64,000 nucleotides of DNA from Cyanidioschyzon merolae (lineage: Eukaryota): the NCBI GenBank assembly GCA_000091205.1, contig AP006500.2, one strand, 5' to 3'. A program made the translations under genes and the position numbers. The stretch's first letter is position 1, and every line of letters starts with the position of its first letter. Below, piece after piece: positions 1-41,750 of this stretch. The notes beneath the pieces were generated by a model. The model did not search any database. It was not told the DNA's origin and saw nothing but the letters and a program-made list of their open reading frames with translations.

Positions 1-330
1 TTATGCGGGCGTGGTGTGTTGGGCTTAAAGATAGTTGTTCTTTGATGAATAGTTTGTGACTAGTTTGCATCGCGCTCAGTGAGCGCACCTCGGAGATCAG
101 GCAGGCATGAGACACGACGCACATGCCGTTGTTGAAGGGGAACGTGATCCTGATCTCTAGCATGTAGATCTATTGTAAACGTTGTATTTTCGTTCAGGCC
201 ATAGCAACGTACAGTCTTTCAGTTCGATTGTGCTTCAAACCTCAAACAAGTCTAGTCAAGTGTTTTTTCGCAGTATATAACAGAAGGGTTCAAAGAGCGT
301 TCTTTCTCAAAAAACAAAAAAAGGAAAGCT

Positions 331-2761
331 ATGAAAAAGCAAGTGCACGATCCTGGAGGCCCAGTGTCGCCGGCTGCCAGAAAAAAACAAAAAACAGTGT
401 CGAGTCCAGAAGAAAAGGAAGAGAAGAAGGACCGAAAGGGGGATGCCCTACGTCGAAGGCGGCAAGAAAGACGACTGTACGACGAGATGGTGGTGAAAGC
501 CTTCCTTCTTGGACATATCAAGGATCCCTACAGGGAAAAGTTGCGAGACGCTATCGAAATACGTGTCGACTCGTACTCCAAGAGTATTGTCAAGGCGTTG
601 TCAGGACTGATGCATTTGGCGAGGGAGATGTATCGCGACGTGACGCACATGCAAACGGTCGAGATTCCAGACGATATCTTCGACAAGACGTTTATTCGCC
701 ACCTGATGCTTGGTACAGGGGAGATGCGGAGGGAAAATGAGCAGTACATGCCGTACACGAAAACTTCGCGCAATTCCGCTTCGAAGGTAATCGATACAGC
801 GGTGACGGAAATATTGACACATACGGAGTGAAAAAGTACATCACGAATCTGAAGAACCATCTGATCGTGAACCTCGAACGTTTCATGATACGCGCCGTAT
901 TTGGACTCTACCCGGGCATCTCTCGCTATGGGAAATGGGCGATTATCAACGGCATCACGAACGATCGCAAGCATGAAGATGAGGTCGAATTTGTTGACCA
1001 GAAGGCGTCAAAAGAGAGCACGAATGAAGCTGCTGTGATCCGTGCGGTTGGACAAGAGCATCGTGTGGTGCTCGGGCTGGTGCATCCAGCAGAAAAGGTA
1101 TAAGAGTTGAAAAAAGATAAGGAAAGATACGATTGTCTCCTCCTACGGTATTTCGTGTTTTTGGACCGTGAACTCGATCGCAAAGCGGAGATGAAGCTGA
1201 GTGAAGAGACAAATGGAGAGTGGGAGAGACGGAAGAATTTCCTAATGGGGAAGTGCTTCAACGTCGTTCCGTCATGCAATGCCAAGTCACATTTTGTTAC
1301 TATCGACTCCAGAATCCCTCACGGCATCATGAAGGAGATCAGTCCGGAGTTCAATGTTAACAGGGAGGAATTCTCCGGTGAAAACCGGATGACGTACTGG
1401 AAGAACATCTTCGATTTCAAACGCCTGAGAGTGAGCAAGCAAAAAGTGTTCACTGGGATAATCGAAACCGATGGAGTAGCCTTGTGTGTACACTATCGGC
1501 GGTTGAAGACAGATCAGCCAGTCCCTCCCTCGGCTGCGCCCATGACGAAGGATGAAGAAAACAAAGAGGCGGGTCCTGCAATGCAAGAGGTGGAGGACAA
1601 CGACTTTGTCGTTGGCGCGGCGGAGCATGAAGAAAACAAAGAGGAGAATCCTACGACTCAGTAGGTAGAGAATAACGACCTTGTCGTTGACGTAACGAAG
1701 GATGAAGATGAGAAGGAAGCGGACCCTGTGATGCAGGAGCTGAGGGGGAACGACCTCATCGTTGACGCGGCGAAGCATGAAGAAAACAAGAAGGCGGGCT
1801 CTGAGAAGCAGAAAGTGCAGGATAACGACTTTGCCGTTGGCGCTGACCCCGGAAACACAAATATCATAAGCATCGCAGCACCCACGCGCGCGGAAAATGG
1901 TACTCACGGTAACTTACGTCAGAAAGACATGCGTCTATTGAGGTTCTCGAGAGCGATATACAATCGATAATCGGGAATCATGAATGCGAGGAAGAAAATT
2001 GAGGCATGGAATGCAGGAATGGAGGATCACCTGGAAGCTATGAGCGAGGTGACGAGCTGCGGAGCGGACTTTGAAGCTTTTCGGAAATTCATGGAAGTTC
2101 ATAGTACCCATTGAGATGCGCTGTGGGAGGAGTATACAAAGCCCCGGTGGGCTCGTCTGCGTATGAATCTATACGGTGGGAGGCAGCGCGCATTCGCGAA
2201 TTTTTTCAATCAGTTGAGCTCCCTAAAGGAGGACGAGAGTCAGAGGCTCGTAGTAGCGTACGGAGCAGGGCGCTTGAAGACCCAAAAAAGGGGCTACGCC
2301 AGCTCCAACGACGAGAACGTACAAGGAGTGTGCACGGCGTTTTGTTACGATACCTGTAGATGAGTTTCGAGCATCCTATGCACACCGTGAACTGGGGTGT
2401 ACACTCCAGAGAGCGGAGATGGAAAAGTGCCAGAGGAGCCCTGAGGATATAAAAAAGTACGGACCGCTGACGGAGGAGCAAATGGAAAGGAGGGCAAAAG
2501 TGCGAGGGCAACTCGCGTTGGTGAGTACAACCCCCAAGCGGCAAGAAACGTATGGAGTTTGTGAACCGAGAATTTAACGCTGCCACCAATATCAGACGAT
2601 GTGCAGTGCTGGAGGAAAGACCTTCAAAGAAGACAAGAGTGAACTTTGTTGGACAACCTATCAAAGTCGAACTATATAAGAAAAAGTTGGAAGCAGTAGC
2701 AGGTAGCCTGTCCAAAAAGACCGGCAGGCGTCTACACTCCAGTTGGAGACTTCTTGTCTAG
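331..2761 (+). pseudogene. Fanzor/TnpB-like RuvC nuclease ORF interrupted by in-frame stops and frameshifts
   Basis: Frame +1 ORF 331-831 begins MKKQVHDPGGP. Frame 0 is readable from 828 to 2363 but carries in-frame stops at 1101 (TAA), 1662 (TAG), 1968 (TAA) and 2112 (TGA). There are frame changes near 830 and near 2335. The C-terminal RuvC-III region lies in frame +2 at 2552-2761. Confidence 0.6.
1500..1870 (+). repeat. Degenerate 75-80 bp internal tandem repeat (about 3.5 units) duplicating the RuvC-I coding segment
   Basis: Repeated peptides are [46 protein letters not shown] and [12 protein letters not shown]. Only the last unit keeps the GxDPG motif. Confidence 0.6.
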
Positions 2762-2833
2762 GCCGCGTTCGCCACTACTGTACACCGCTGGCGACAACGT
2801 TTTTCTTTTGAAAGGCGTTTGTTGTTGACGGTG

Positions 2834-4021
2834 ATGCCGGTTGTCGTGCTCTGCGGCTTGCCTCGAGCAGGCAAGTCAGCGCTGGCAAAGCGAATCGCTG
2901 AAGCAGCACCACCACACCTTAAACCAGTGACGATACTCTCAGATCGCGGCATAGAGGACTACGCTGAGCCGCAGCGCGAGAAGACTGCGCGCAGTCGTCT
3001 GCGTGCAGCCTTGGAGCGTGCACCTTACCGCGAACGTCTGGTGATCGTAGATGCTTGCAATCTCGTCTCTGGTTTTCGCTATGAGCTATGGTGCGTGACC
3101 CGCGTGCCCGCTGGAAAGCGTCAAGAGTCAATACCTCACGTGACAGTACTTATTAGAAGTAAGGCAGACGTTTCTGAAGTCTCCTGTGCTCATAGTCCGC
3201 CGGGATACCAGCGCTCCACTGCCGACCGGCCTTCGGCTGCAGCAGTGGGCCCAACGCGTCTTGTTGTCGAACCCGAACTGACGTCGCCGGAGAGGATCGG
3301 GCACGAGCCGCAAGCGAAAAGCGCCCGGTCGGCGAACGCAGATGCTTTGCGCTCTGTTCTGAACGGGCGATGTGAAGTGGCAGGTCCCAGACAACAGCCT
3401 CAAGCGGACAGCGACGTGGCAGCGAACATTGCCCGGGTACGAGAGCGCTTCGAATGGCCAGACCCGCAAGGCCAACGATGGGATCGACCGCTGTTCACCA
3501 TGTCATTGAAGGAGAGGGTTTGCTCGTACGAAACTCCGGATGGGTGCACGTTCTTCGAAGAAACGCAATGGGTCGCTTCCATCTATGATTGGATTTCAGG
3601 AGGCACTGCTCGGAAGGATTTCAAAACGACGTCACGAATGACGATCGCGACGCGTCAGACTCGCGTTCAATCCGCGGATAGCTACTTCGAAAGCGAGATC
3701 CGCAAAATCGAGGACGCTATTATCCAAGTGCTCTGCGCCGGAGATGAGGGCGAGCATCAACACCCCGGAACGGTGTATACGTACGACAAGTGTCCGCTTC
3801 GCCTTCCTGAATCGTACTTGCGACGGATTTTCCTGCTCGCGAATCAATCCAGTCGCCTGTATACGGTATCGCAAGATTTGCGTGCACATCGTCATCTCTT
3901 TGTACGTCGATATCAGAAACGACGGGTAGAGCAAGATTCGAGTGCTTCGGTGCAAGAGTTCATTCGGTCTCTGGAAGGATACCTTGAGCTGCGCGACCAA
4001 CAACGTCGTAGCGAACACTGA
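2834..4021 (+). CDS. KTI12: KTI12 homolog (Elongator-associated P-loop ATPase, PSTK-like)
   Basis: The protein starts MPVVVLCGLPRAGKS (P-loop, compare human MPLVVFCGLPYSGKS). It also has the LVIVDACNLVSGFRYELWCVTR and RWDRPLFTM motifs. The ATG is at 2834, inside the 2819-4021 ORF. Confidence 0.75.
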   Translation: MPVVVLCGLPRAGKSALAKRIAEAAPPHLKPVTILSDRGIEDYAEPQREKTARSRLRAALERAPYRERLVIVDACNLVSGFRYELWCVTRVPAGKRQESIPHVTVLIRSKADVSEVSCAHSPPGYQRSTADRPSAAAVGPTRLVVEPELTSPERIGHEPQAKSARSANADALRSVLNGRCEVAGPRQQPQADSDVAANIARVRERFEWPDPQGQRWDRPLFTMSLKERVCSYETPDGCTFFEETQWVASIYDWISGGTARKDFKTTSRMTIATRQTRVQSADSYFESEIRKIEDAIIQVLCAGDEGEHQHPGTVYTYDKCPLRLPESYLRRIFLLANQSSRLYTVSQDLRAHRHLFVRRYQKRRVEQDSSASVQEFIRSLEGYLELRDQQRRSEH

Positions 4022-14027: not shown

Positions 14028-14396
14028 CTAGGCAGTAGCTTCCATAGCGCGGTAACTTGCGGCATTCATGCTTCCACAGGGCCTAAGTTCGCGTCCGCGA
14101 TCCCACACAATGGACAAGTGAACTCCGCCGGGTGTGTCCTGCACCTCCGCCATCGACTGGGTTCGCTCAACGCATCCCCGGGGATTCGAGTTTGTGTATT
14201 GCTTCGGGTTTTCTTCATTGTAGATATCTAGGCTCAACGTCCCTTGCCTCATTTTCCGGGATGCTCGACAGTGGTGGGTATCCGAGGCATCCACCAGTGC
14301 CCCGCTCCAAATATGACGAGGCCCGTCTCGTTTCGGACAGGCCTTCTTAATGGCTTCCAACTGAATTGTGTTATACCCCCAGGTGCGCGTCATCAA
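14028..14396 (-). CDS. Small hypothetical ORF (122 aa) with a weak MsrB/Mss4-like C-terminal resemblance
   Basis: The segment GGVHLSIVWDRGRELRPCGSMNAASY loosely resembles MsrB GGHLGHVFDDGP...RYCINSAAL. Its 5' end abuts Fanzor-derived copy B. Confidence 0.25.
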   Translation of the reverse strand: MMTRTWGYNTIQLEAIKKACPKRDGPRHIWSGALVDASDTHHCRASRKMRQGTLSLDIYNEENPKQYTNSNPRGCVERTQSMAEVQDTPGGVHLSIVWDRGRELRPCGSMNAASYRAMEATA

Positions 14397-14907
14397 GTGC
14401 TTTTTTTCGCGGTTTACAGCAGAAGCGTTCCAAGTGTGTTTATTTTCAAAAAAAAAATCGAGGGCATGTTATGGACATGCAAGTCAGGGATCCTGGTGGG
14501 CCTCTATCGCTGGGTGCCGGAGAAAAACAAGAAAATCCTCATGTGATCGAGCGTCGAGCGAAGAAGAGCAGCTGGCGGAGAATCAGAAAAAGAATACTAG
14601 GGGCGATAAGCGAGATACGGTTTTCACCCGGCTGTACGATGACGAGACTCTTGCCGTACAGCGGGCACGAGTTGCAGTGATCTTTGTACTGGTTCCATCA
14701 ACCAGTTGCAATAGAATCGCGGAGTTCGTGAACCGAGATTCCATCGCCGTCATGGTTGTCAGCCGATTTACGTTGCTGAAGAGGAGACCCGCGGCGCTCA
14801 CGCGAGCCAACTTGTGGGTCAGCCTCCCCGGCTCGGAGTGTACAAGGAGAAACAGAGCCCGATAGCAGTCAGCCGGTCAAAAACGGCTGGGAGGCGTCTC
14901 CTTCCGG
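14349..14907 (+). mobile_element. Non-autonomous internally deleted Fanzor-family element (copy B)
   Basis: The 5' end actgaattgtg...tcaagtgctttttttcgcgg and the ORF start ATGGACATGCAAGTCAGGGATCCTGGTGGGCC match copy A. A remnant EFVNRDSIAV is followed by the 3' module gatagcagtcagccggtcaaaaacggctgggaggcgtctcc. Confidence 0.65.
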
Positions 14908-27162: not shown

Positions 27163-27559
27163 GGACATCACGCAGTGCATTCATTTTCAAAAATAAGAAA
27201 TCTAATGGATGCGCTGGGTTGTACACCTCAAAAGGTTGGGATGGAGAGAAGGCAGTGGAGCGCTTCGGCGATTGAAAAGCACGGAGAGCTGACAGAGCAC
27301 CAAACGGCACTGAGGGCAAGAGTTCGAGGAATCCTTGCAATGATGAGTACCACCAGCATCAGTAATCGCATGGAATTCGTAAACCGAGGCTTCAACGCTG
27401 CTATCCATATCAGACGATGTACGTTGTTGAAGACGAGACCCGGGGATTTGAGGCGAACCAACTTCCTGGGGCAGCCTCTGATGCTCGAAGTGTGCCTAAA
27501 GAAACTGATTCCGATCGCATGCGGCAGATCAAAAAGACTGGGCGGCGCCCGTCAGTTGG
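27163..27559 (+). mobile_element. Non-autonomous internally deleted Fanzor-family element (copy C)
   Basis: The 5' start of the ORF is retained (ATGGATGCG...). The ORF 27175-27564 encodes RARVRGILAMMSTTSISNRMEFVNRGFNAAIHIRRC, colinear with the copy A C-terminus. It ends with the 3' module gatcgcatgcggcagatcaaaaagactgggcggcgcccgtcagttgg. Confidence 0.65.
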
Positions 27560-40560: not shown

Positions 40561-40918
40561 CTCACGGAAGACGACTGCAGGCTCCGGGAGGCTTATCGCG
40601 CCGGTCAAGCACCTTGTCAGATGTCGAGGCTCAACGCTGGTGCGTATGGGCGAACTCAAATACGTGTCCACCGGATCAAGGGCACGATGTAAGCTCCAAT
40701 GATCATGAGACGCAATGAATTAGTCAAGTCCTACATAATCGGTTCCCCTGAGGCGCAAAGAGACAGCAGCTTGGGCAGGACTGTGAATTGGTCGCTGTCC
40801 TGCGAGCCTAGTGAAAGAACGGTGTTGCTTCGTGGTCGTTTCGTGGACCCTGACAACCGAGACAAACCGCTCTGTCAATTCTTTCTCCGGAATTGTGTTC
40901 CGCCCCCCAGATGTGTGT

Positions 40919-41417
40919 ACTGAATTGCTTTTTCACAATTTATACCATGCGCATTCGAAGTATGTTTATTTGAGGAAACAGAAATCTAAGTGAAAGGCAT
41001 GGACATGCAAGTCGGCAATCCTGGATGACAGTCAATGCCGGCTGCCGGAAACAATCCTCCTCTTGTCGACCATCGAGCGCAGAGGCGCAAGTGACGACGA
41101 AGACGAAGAGGGCGAATAGGCGAAAAACAGTGCCTCCCGACGGGACGATAACGAGACTTTTGTCGCACAGAGGGTACGGGTCTGAGAAATCCTTGCAAAG
41201 GTGCGTTCAACCGGTGTCAATGTACGCAAGGAGTTCGTGAGCCCAGACCTCAACGCCGCCGTCAATATCACACAATGTGTAGCACTGGAGACTAGACCCG
41301 CGGAGCCGACGCGAGCGAACTTTGCAGGGCATCCTCTCCCGCTCGATGTGTACAAGCAGAAACTAAAACCGATAGCAGTCGGACGGTCGAAAAGGGATGG
41401 GAGGCGTCTTCCAATGG
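40919..41417 (+). mobile_element. Non-autonomous internally deleted Fanzor-family element (copy D)
   Basis: The 5' end actgaattgcttttt and the ORF start ATGGACATGCAAGTCGGCAATCCTGGA are retained. A remnant KEFVSPDLNAAVNITQC (RuvC-III with D intact) is followed by the 3' module gatagcagtcggacggtcgaaaagggatgggaggcgtcttccaatgg. Confidence 0.65.
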
Positions 41418-41750
41418 TTTTCCATTTACCCTACACGGTCGTGGGACATTTTTTGTTTCACGAACATTTATGTATATTGGGGAATAATTGCATCAGAGAG
41501 GTGATTGTTGCTTGCTTCCGCTTGTGGTGATCCACGCCGACATCTCCACACCATCGAAGAACGATGTGCATCCGTCCGCAAATGACGCATCCCGCACATG
41601 CCTCCTGCTCCTACGATGACTGTCTATACGTTGACGATGCGAACCAAGCCAAAGACAAGTTTAAACAGAAAAACCTCGCTTTCGTCGCGCGATGTCGTTG
41701 ATATGCAGCGCCGGTCGGGATCACTCCTGTTCACGGGTACGCACCGTGCG

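Follow-up and report, generated by a model that had tools for sequence, protein, structure and literature searches.

Organization of the locus

The DNA analyzed here, a stretch of 64,000 nucleotides from Cyanidioschyzon merolae (contig AP006500.2, assembly GCA_000091205.1; hereafter the window), opens with a Fanzor1 element, the end of which, at about position 2833, is directly abutted by the ATG of a host gene. The features of the element and of this neighboring gene are collected in Table 1. The other host open reading frames (ORFs) of the window are ordinary eukaryotic genes, encoding, for example, a glycosyltransferase and an FAD oxidase. Three host proteins encoded in the window are identical to C. 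merolae 10D entries, which lie on a chromosome of 1.25 Mb. The window also contains short relics in which parts of both element ends, 5′ and 3′, are retained.

The extent of the element was assessed by comparison with related copies in metagenome contigs. Homology to paralogs began at window positions 67–100 in most copies and stopped at 2817–2834. Upstream of approximately position 67, the copies split into four types of 5′ extension. In the orthologous contig L014, positions 954–1589 (equivalent to window positions −576 to 59) form a 636-nt repeat, which was also found in reversed orientation in contig L054.

An equivalent of the terminal hairpin was present at most paralog ends, several of which had unrelated arms (L071, L030, and L042). 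Judging by sequence and predicted folding, the terminal hairpin may represent a right-end or omega-RNA structure. RNAalifold analysis of the last 230 nt yielded a poorly defined consensus that covariation barely supported. As the hairpins are of two types whose alignment is out of register, the terminal hairpin was missed by this approach, in place of which each copy was folded separately. A search against Rfam returned only two matches, both far below the threshold.

Table 1. Coordinates of the Fanzor1 element, its lesions, and the adjoining host gene in the window.
Feature	Position	Strand	Details
Tail (~60 nt) of a ~636-nt 5′ module resembling TE-N2_CMe	1–66	+	Truncated by the window start
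5′ non-coding region, common to all Fanzor copies of the family	67–330	+	Homology to paralogs
N-terminal coding segment of the Fanzor1 pseudogene	331–744	+	Frame 1, ATG at 331; tblastn with P0001
Frameshift 1, 1-nt deletion	742–746	+	Consensus GAGCTAGTG, window GAGC-AGTA; T lost at ~744
Central coding segment	744–2288	+	Frame 0; contains the four in-frame stops
Nonsense 1	1101–1103	+	TAA from TCA (Ser), C>A transversion
Acidic tandem repeat, 75 nt (25 aa) × 4	1546–1843	+	TRF period 75, 4.0 copies
Nonsense 2, in repeat unit 2	1662–1664	+	TAG from GAG (or AAG), a transversion in either case
RuvC-I catalytic Asp codon, kept	1845–1847	+	GAC in GADPG motif
Nonsense 3	1968–1970	+	TAA from GAA (Glu), G>T transversion
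Nonsense 4	2112–2114	+	TGA from TGG (Trp), G>A transition, opposite-strand CpC context
Frameshift 2, +1 insertion in A-run	2284–2289	+	A5 > A6
Coding segment with VDEFRAS motif	2290–2535	+	Frame 1; conserved Glu codon at 2362–2364
Frameshift 3, +1 insertion	2533–2537	+	CCCAA-CGG > CCCAAGCGG
C-terminal coding segment	2537–2761	+	Frame 2, terminates at TAG 2759–2761
Long 3′-end hairpin, up to the element boundary	2783–2833	+	RNAfold −25 kcal/mol
Host gene, KTI12 family, outside the element	2834–4021	+	PF08433, E = 1.3e-27

Reading frame and lesions of the coding region

The central coding segment of the element is in frame 0 (positions divisible by 3). Between the bounding TGA codons at 738 and 2361, this frame contained four stops in 541 codons; in this interval, the remaining forward frames contained 33 and 28. 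An open frame with only four stops is far beyond chance. The original prediction had listed these stops at 1101 (TAA), 1662 (TAG), 1968 (TAA), and 2112 (TGA); all four were confirmed, and the frame was otherwise open.

The frame changes required revision. The original prediction had placed two of them, near 830 and 2335, but these positions are merely where neighboring frames close or open. We located the frameshift sites using tblastn with P0001, a 752-aa protein that is the closest relative (72% identity, 93% coverage), together with a DNA alignment of 47 copies of the family. Homology gave three 1-nt frameshifts, at approximately 744, 2288, and 2536, so that the tally of four nonsense mutations versus two frameshifts was corrected to four versus three. 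The third frameshift lies outside the originally considered range (828–2363), and the coding region is longer than had been noted. Matches to P0001 occupied frame 1 at 397–744, frame 0 at 744–2288 (73% identity), frame 1 at 2269–2532, and frame 2 at 2537–2653; a search with another relative, P0005, extended the frame 2 segment to 2785. Altogether, the Fanzor1 coding region runs from the ATG at 331 through frames 1, 0, 1, and 2 to the TAG that ends at 2761. The consensus ORF of the family copies opens with MKKQV.

Assignment to Fanzor1

The identification of the ORF as Fanzor, made in the original prediction, was borne out by matches of a family profile to solved Fanzor1 structures and by an AlphaFold model. 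Scans of the stitched ORF and its relatives against Pfam and NCBIfam found no significant family; PF07282 matched only below the threshold (E = 0.028–0.23), and these matches were weak and positional. Searches of PDB with the stitched protein (phmmer) and with a shallow profile (A1) produced chance matches only. A deep alignment of 51 diverse members (A3) was drawn from a profile search among 1.84 billion representative proteins, which returned 2254 relatives. The profile of these 51 members matched PpFz1 (1.9e-23), SpuFz1 (8.8e-16), and GtFz1 (6.8e-14) in PDB.

The AF2 model of P0001 had a pLDDT of 82 and a pTM of 0.79. When it was compared to PDB using Foldseek, the top seven matches were Fanzor1 chains (E = 4e-17 to 5e-14), and the TM-score against SpuFz was 0.71. 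An earlier AF2 model, built from a shallow alignment, was unusable (pLDDT 34) and was replaced once diverse relatives had been added.

Residues D484, E656, and D725 were invariant in A3 (motifs GxDPG, VDEFRT, and NRDxNAAxNI). In the window copy, the first Asp and the Glu (2362–2364) are kept, and the third Asp is replaced by Glu (GAA, 2570–2572): its RuvC-III motif reads NREFNAA, with Glu at the position of the invariant Asp. The 75-nt repeat sits just upstream of RuvC-I, and its copy number varies among paralogs. In the P0001 model, the repeat segment (residues 374–469) was predicted to be disordered (pLDDT < 50). With four stops, three frameshifts, and the substitution of a catalytic Asp by Glu, the ORF at 331–2761 is no longer intact; it is a Fanzor1 gene that is now a pseudogene, and the window copy probably makes no functional nuclease.

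The C. merolae family resembles the characterized Fanzor1 nucleases SpuFz1 (8GKH), PpFz1 (9CF0), and GtFz1 (9CER) in profile homology, predicted fold, and RuvC motifs, at an identity of 12–15%. Unlike them, it possesses a variable linker of 25-aa tandem repeats, predicted to be disordered, before RuvC-I. The CxxC...CxxC zinc-finger pattern that the aligned stretch of PpFz1 displays appears to be missing from the C. merolae family, which shows HH...C...C or a single conserved Cys, not two CxxC pairs. The window copy further differs from the three characterized nucleases in being inactivated.

Similarity to TnpB and the IS200/IS605 elements is seen in the RuvC superfamily, with Cas12 and Cas12f being the next-best fold matches after Fanzor1, as well as in the absence of TIRs and in a structured right end whose limit coincides with the element boundary. 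The differences are the eukaryotic host and a protein that is much larger and has an extended helical region at its N-terminus. A TnpA was not found at any of the sampled loci.

Relationship to the CMe-1A family

One Fanzor1 family, CMe-1A, was described in C. merolae by Bao & Jurka 2013 (Mob DNA 4:12; PMC3627910). It is an old, degenerate family in strain 10D, with about 150 copies that are each ~80% identical to the consensus, ~3 kb long, and without TIRs (PMC3627910). No TSDs could be established for CMe-1A, the 635 bp at its 5′ end represent a separate repeat, TE-N2_CMe, and some of its copies in the 10D genome still encode an intact protein (PMC3627910).

The window element agrees with this description in being a multi-copy, old and diverged element of ~3 kb in the same organism, without TIRs and with a separate 5′ module of ~635 bp. 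It is a CMe-1A copy, as judged by organism, size, copy number, 5′ module, and protein family rather than by the Repbase consensus. Most CMe-1A copies are degenerate, and the window element is one dead member with nothing essential to set it apart.

Damage across the family

The family set consisted of 343 related stretches in metagenome contigs, representing 47 sequence-distinct copies (clusters at 97% identity). These comparison copies derive from metagenome assemblies of related environmental strains, and some of the "paralog" clusters are diverged orthologs or mosaics. Lesions were present in all 47 copies, with a total of 147 stops and 112 frameshifts; because some clusters share flanks or are mosaics, these are not fully independent events. 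Ten of the 147 stops fell at a single hypervariable C-terminal codon. As none of the 47 sampled copies was fully intact, the source of the family's past spread was not seen here.

The 4:3 ratio of stops to frameshifts in the window copy is typical of the family. The original prediction had started from a predominance of nonsense mutations over indels, but neither 4:3 at this locus nor 147:112 family-wide constitutes a meaningful excess.

Decay of an inserted copy

We consider it very likely (probability of roughly 0.93) that positions ~1–2833 are one inserted CMe-1A copy, the Fanzor1 gene of which (331–2761) became a pseudogene through ordinary neutral decay. The view of the locus as a decayed copy, already part of the original prediction, is supported by a protein alignment that is colinear throughout and by sense codons of relatives that align to all four stops without a gap. 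Each lesion was polarized using the consensus of the 47 copies. At site 1101, TCA was found in 42 of the 43 sense codons of other copies; at site 1662, most other copies had GAG, and the window's other repeat units had GAG or AAA; at site 1968, all 46 other copies had GAA.

Relative to the consensus, the window copy differed by 67:43:103 changes at the three codon positions, and 45% of all changes were synonymous, compared to 22% expected at random. This synonymous excess indicates that the lineage was coding, and under purifying selection, before the copy died.

In the scenario that we favor, the KTI12 gene received a Fanzor1 insertion immediately 5′ of its start codon. Once unselected, the copy gathered random substitutions and single-base indels, thereby gaining four nonsense mutations (three transversions and one transition), three 1-nt indels, and the Asp-to-Glu replacement in RuvC-III. 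We infer that at least one of the indels, the one in the A-run, arose by homopolymer slippage.

It is also conceivable, if rather unlikely, that the copy was dead at insertion, i.e., that a defective template was mobilized in trans and part of the damage predates the insertion. Paralog L075 carries the identical 1-nt deletion at ~744, but the nearest paralog, L029, does not, and we roughly estimated the probability that one indel site would coincide by chance, given 112 events over ~2.4 kb, at ~10%. In several further paralog groups, the members have more than one stop or frameshift in common, but some of these lesion-sharing "paralogs" share flanks or are mosaics. The window relics with both element ends are compatible with such mobilization; all four stops of the window copy, however, were private to this locus when compared to the other family copies. 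Shared lesions were additionally considered as proof that dead copies transpose, a line of evidence undermined by the same mosaics and flank-sharing copies.

Mutation spectrum

Neutral decay after insertion differs from the cause put forward in the original prediction, namely C-to-T transitions in a GC- and CpG-rich genome or a RIP-like process acting on repeats. The genome is indeed GC-rich (55%), the element is repeated in many copies, and stops slightly outnumber frameshifts in the family (147 versus 112). Nevertheless, we regard inactivation of the window copy by RIP-like or CpG-methylation decay as very improbable. Only one of its four stops is a transition, and that one lies outside both CpG and CpA contexts; the other three are transversions.

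The sequence-based checks proposed along with the original prediction led to the same conclusion. Alignment of the copies, with substitutions classified by type and by dinucleotide context, revealed a flat spectrum: singleton substitutions in the family comprised 603 transitions and 889 transversions (ratio 0.68). The per-site rates of C>T among these singletons were independent of CpG or CpA context (0.21 for CpG, 0.205 for CpT, 0.186 for CpA, and 0.197 for CpC). C>T and G>A changes were symmetric between strands (0.282 and 0.273 per site, respectively).

RIP is indicated by a TpA/ApT index above 0.89 and a (CpA+TpG)/(ApC+GpT) index below 1.03. The window copy had values of 0.67 and 1.08, both normal and on the non-RIP side. 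The observed/expected ratio of CpG was 1.14 for the element versus 1.16 for host DNA, and the GC content was 0.494 in the window copy and 0.497 in the consensus. Compared to fungal RIP (Neurospora and others), the C. merolae element shares only the repeated target with many premature stops. Unlike fungal RIP, it exhibits no transition bias, no CpA>TpA signature, and no AT enrichment, and its indices are normal.

The types of stops in the family followed the same pattern as the other substitutions. Nonsense events numbered 31 transitions and 66 transversions (32% transitions), whereas the expected share of transitions was 29–32% at the observed transition:transversion ratio, with an overall range of 18–32%. 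One transition among the four stops of the window copy is consistent with this expectation. The excess of transversion-type stops arises because the ORF is dominated by codons for Glu, Lys, and Tyr, from which a stop can be reached by transversion alone. Overall, 3.7–4.2% of random substitutions in the Fanzor1 ORF yield a stop.

Two further signals were considered and rejected. The many TGG>stop events prompted a search for strand-asymmetric G>A changes, a possible signal of single-stranded DNA deamination, and no asymmetry was observed. An excess of stops at Trp codons disappeared at the site level (15 of 97 events versus 11–12% expected).

Introns and recoding

We see very little chance that the gene is still functional, with its stops located in introns or with readthrough, recoding, or a variant genetic code allowing translation past them. 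The contexts at 1101 (AAG|GTATAAG) and 1662 (CAG|TAGGTAGAG) superficially resemble splice donors, but the alignment to relatives is gap-free at all four stops, and splicing would remove conserved residues. This colinearity through every stop excludes introns, in line with the doubt about short introns voiced in the original prediction. A variant code, also dismissed there, is excluded because codons for Ser, Glu, Glu, and Trp gave way to three types of stop codons, a combination that no single reassignment fits. In addition, host ORFs exactly matching annotated 10D proteins terminate at standard stops, and a functional gene would have to accommodate the three frameshifts and the catalytic Asp substitution.

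Orthologous alleles in environmental strains

Three metagenome contigs (L014, L010, and L011) contained the same insertion together with its flanks, at 98.3–98.9% identity over up to 5.7 kb. Stops 1101, 1662, and 1968 and frameshifts 744 and 2288 were present in all three orthologous alleles. The remaining two lesions were polymorphic: at stop 2112, allele L014 retains TGG, and at frameshift 2536, the same allele is one base shorter and in frame. Private indels were found in the alleles as well, with the A-run at 373–380 being A7, A8, or A9 depending on the allele and an additional C at 2736. Within the element, the window and L014 differed by 17 transitions and 17 transversions.

Allele L010 carried a cluster of 14 substitutions and an indel at 2489–2596, with GAC (Asp) restored. 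From its sequence, this tract looks like a gene conversion.

Since lesions were identical in independent assemblies, they are not sequencing errors, and most of them are older than the split of the strains. Decay is still under way, as the alleles are polymorphic for one stop and one frameshift. The original prediction had allowed that other copies might expose the stops as sequencing errors; instead, three of them recurred in the allele assemblies. Errors of sequencing or assembly in the window are a very improbable explanation: two indel sites do lie in or beside homopolymers (2284–2289, and CCCCCAA at 2531–2537), but five lesions recur identically in three independent metagenome assemblies of the locus and the other two also occur in some orthologous alleles.

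Discussion

The window element is an ordinary decayed copy of a family that has already been described. The locus is no argument for RIP, for CpG-driven decay, or for introns or recoding in C. merolae. In an ORF rich in Glu, Lys, and Tyr, ordinary mutation gives mostly transversion-type stops, and under neutrality, stops and frameshifts are expected in a ratio close to 1. Counts of stops versus indels can therefore be informative on the mutational process only after the changes have been polarized against a consensus.

More tentatively, dead copies might still take part in the life cycle of the family by means of the right-end hairpin, which is conserved in structure, gene conversion, and copying in trans by a few intact genes, although we doubt that this is the case. 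Under such a life cycle, copying in trans would explain the −1 frameshift shared with L075 and the two-ended relics in the window. If true, persistence of the family would depend chiefly on non-autonomous passengers, carried along by an active nuclease that is itself rare.

For the window itself, where neutral decay of an inserted copy is our preferred reading, the finding matters little beyond annotation: the locus should be labeled as a Fanzor1 (CMe-1A) pseudogene.

Variable Sites and Modular Structure of the Fanzor1 Element

Features of the window copy of the Fanzor1 family CMe-1A and of related sequences
Feature	Position	Location and description
~636-nt repeat	window 1-66; L014:954-1589 (metagenome contig, environmental allele of the same insertion)	5' of the Fanzor part in the window copy's subfamily
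A-run, indel hotspot	373-380 (alignment column ~456)	near ORF start
Tandem repeat	1546-1843	75-nt (25-aa, acidic) unit, four copies; directly upstream of the RuvC-I motif
Hypervariable codon	2630-2632 (consensus codon 751)	C-terminal tail
Long hairpin	2783-2833	extreme 3' end of the element; -25 kcal/mol
Element/host gene junction	2833/2834	ATG of a KTI12-family gene (2834-4021) abuts the element end
Short relics of the element family	14393-14814, 40893-41455, 27214-27537	elsewhere in the window

The length of the A-run in the Fanzor1 pseudogene varied between alleles of this locus (A7, A8 or A9), and about a dozen paralogs carried a frameshift at this position; part of this variation could be homopolymer error of the metagenome assemblies. 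The 1-nt deletion at window 742-746 was found in identical form in the paralog L075 (86% identical), reflecting either coincidence or inheritance from an already defective template. At consensus codon 751, variation affected the middle base, with TAG in nine copies, TGG in eight, and TCG and TTG in seven each; distant relatives encode Leu here. As stops at codons 751 and 759 fall 3' of every catalytic motif, truncation of the C-terminal tail at these codons may be tolerated.

L010, an environmental allele of the same insertion, differed from the window copy by 14 clustered substitutions and a 4-nt length difference at 2489-2596. This cluster looks like a gene-conversion tract with another copy as donor, and with it L010 regains an Asp codon (GAC) in RuvC-III.

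The number of 25-aa units differed between relatives, from about one to six. Every unit is closed by a DNDFVVGA-like strand, the same strand that precedes the catalytic DPG, and the acidic repeat segment was predicted to be disordered.

The 5' repeat, truncated by the window start, is probably TE-N2_CMe, a separate C. merolae repeat reported as the 5' 635 bp of CMe-1A. Other copies carried three further, unrelated 5' extensions, joined at the same junction (window ~67). Two of the three short relics have an internal deletion between a retained 5' piece and a retained 3' piece, resembling MITE-type derivatives; the third was a 3' fragment alone.

Element 3' End and the KTI12-family Gene

A hairpin equivalent to that of the window copy folds at most paralog ends. 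In some paralogs (L071, L030, and L042) it is formed from arms wholly unlike in sequence, indicating that structure rather than sequence is conserved. The hairpin is a candidate right-end or omega-RNA element. Since the element end adjoins the KTI12 ATG, the original upstream region of this gene has been moved away by ~2.8 kb or more, and the transcription start of KTI12 may lie within the element.
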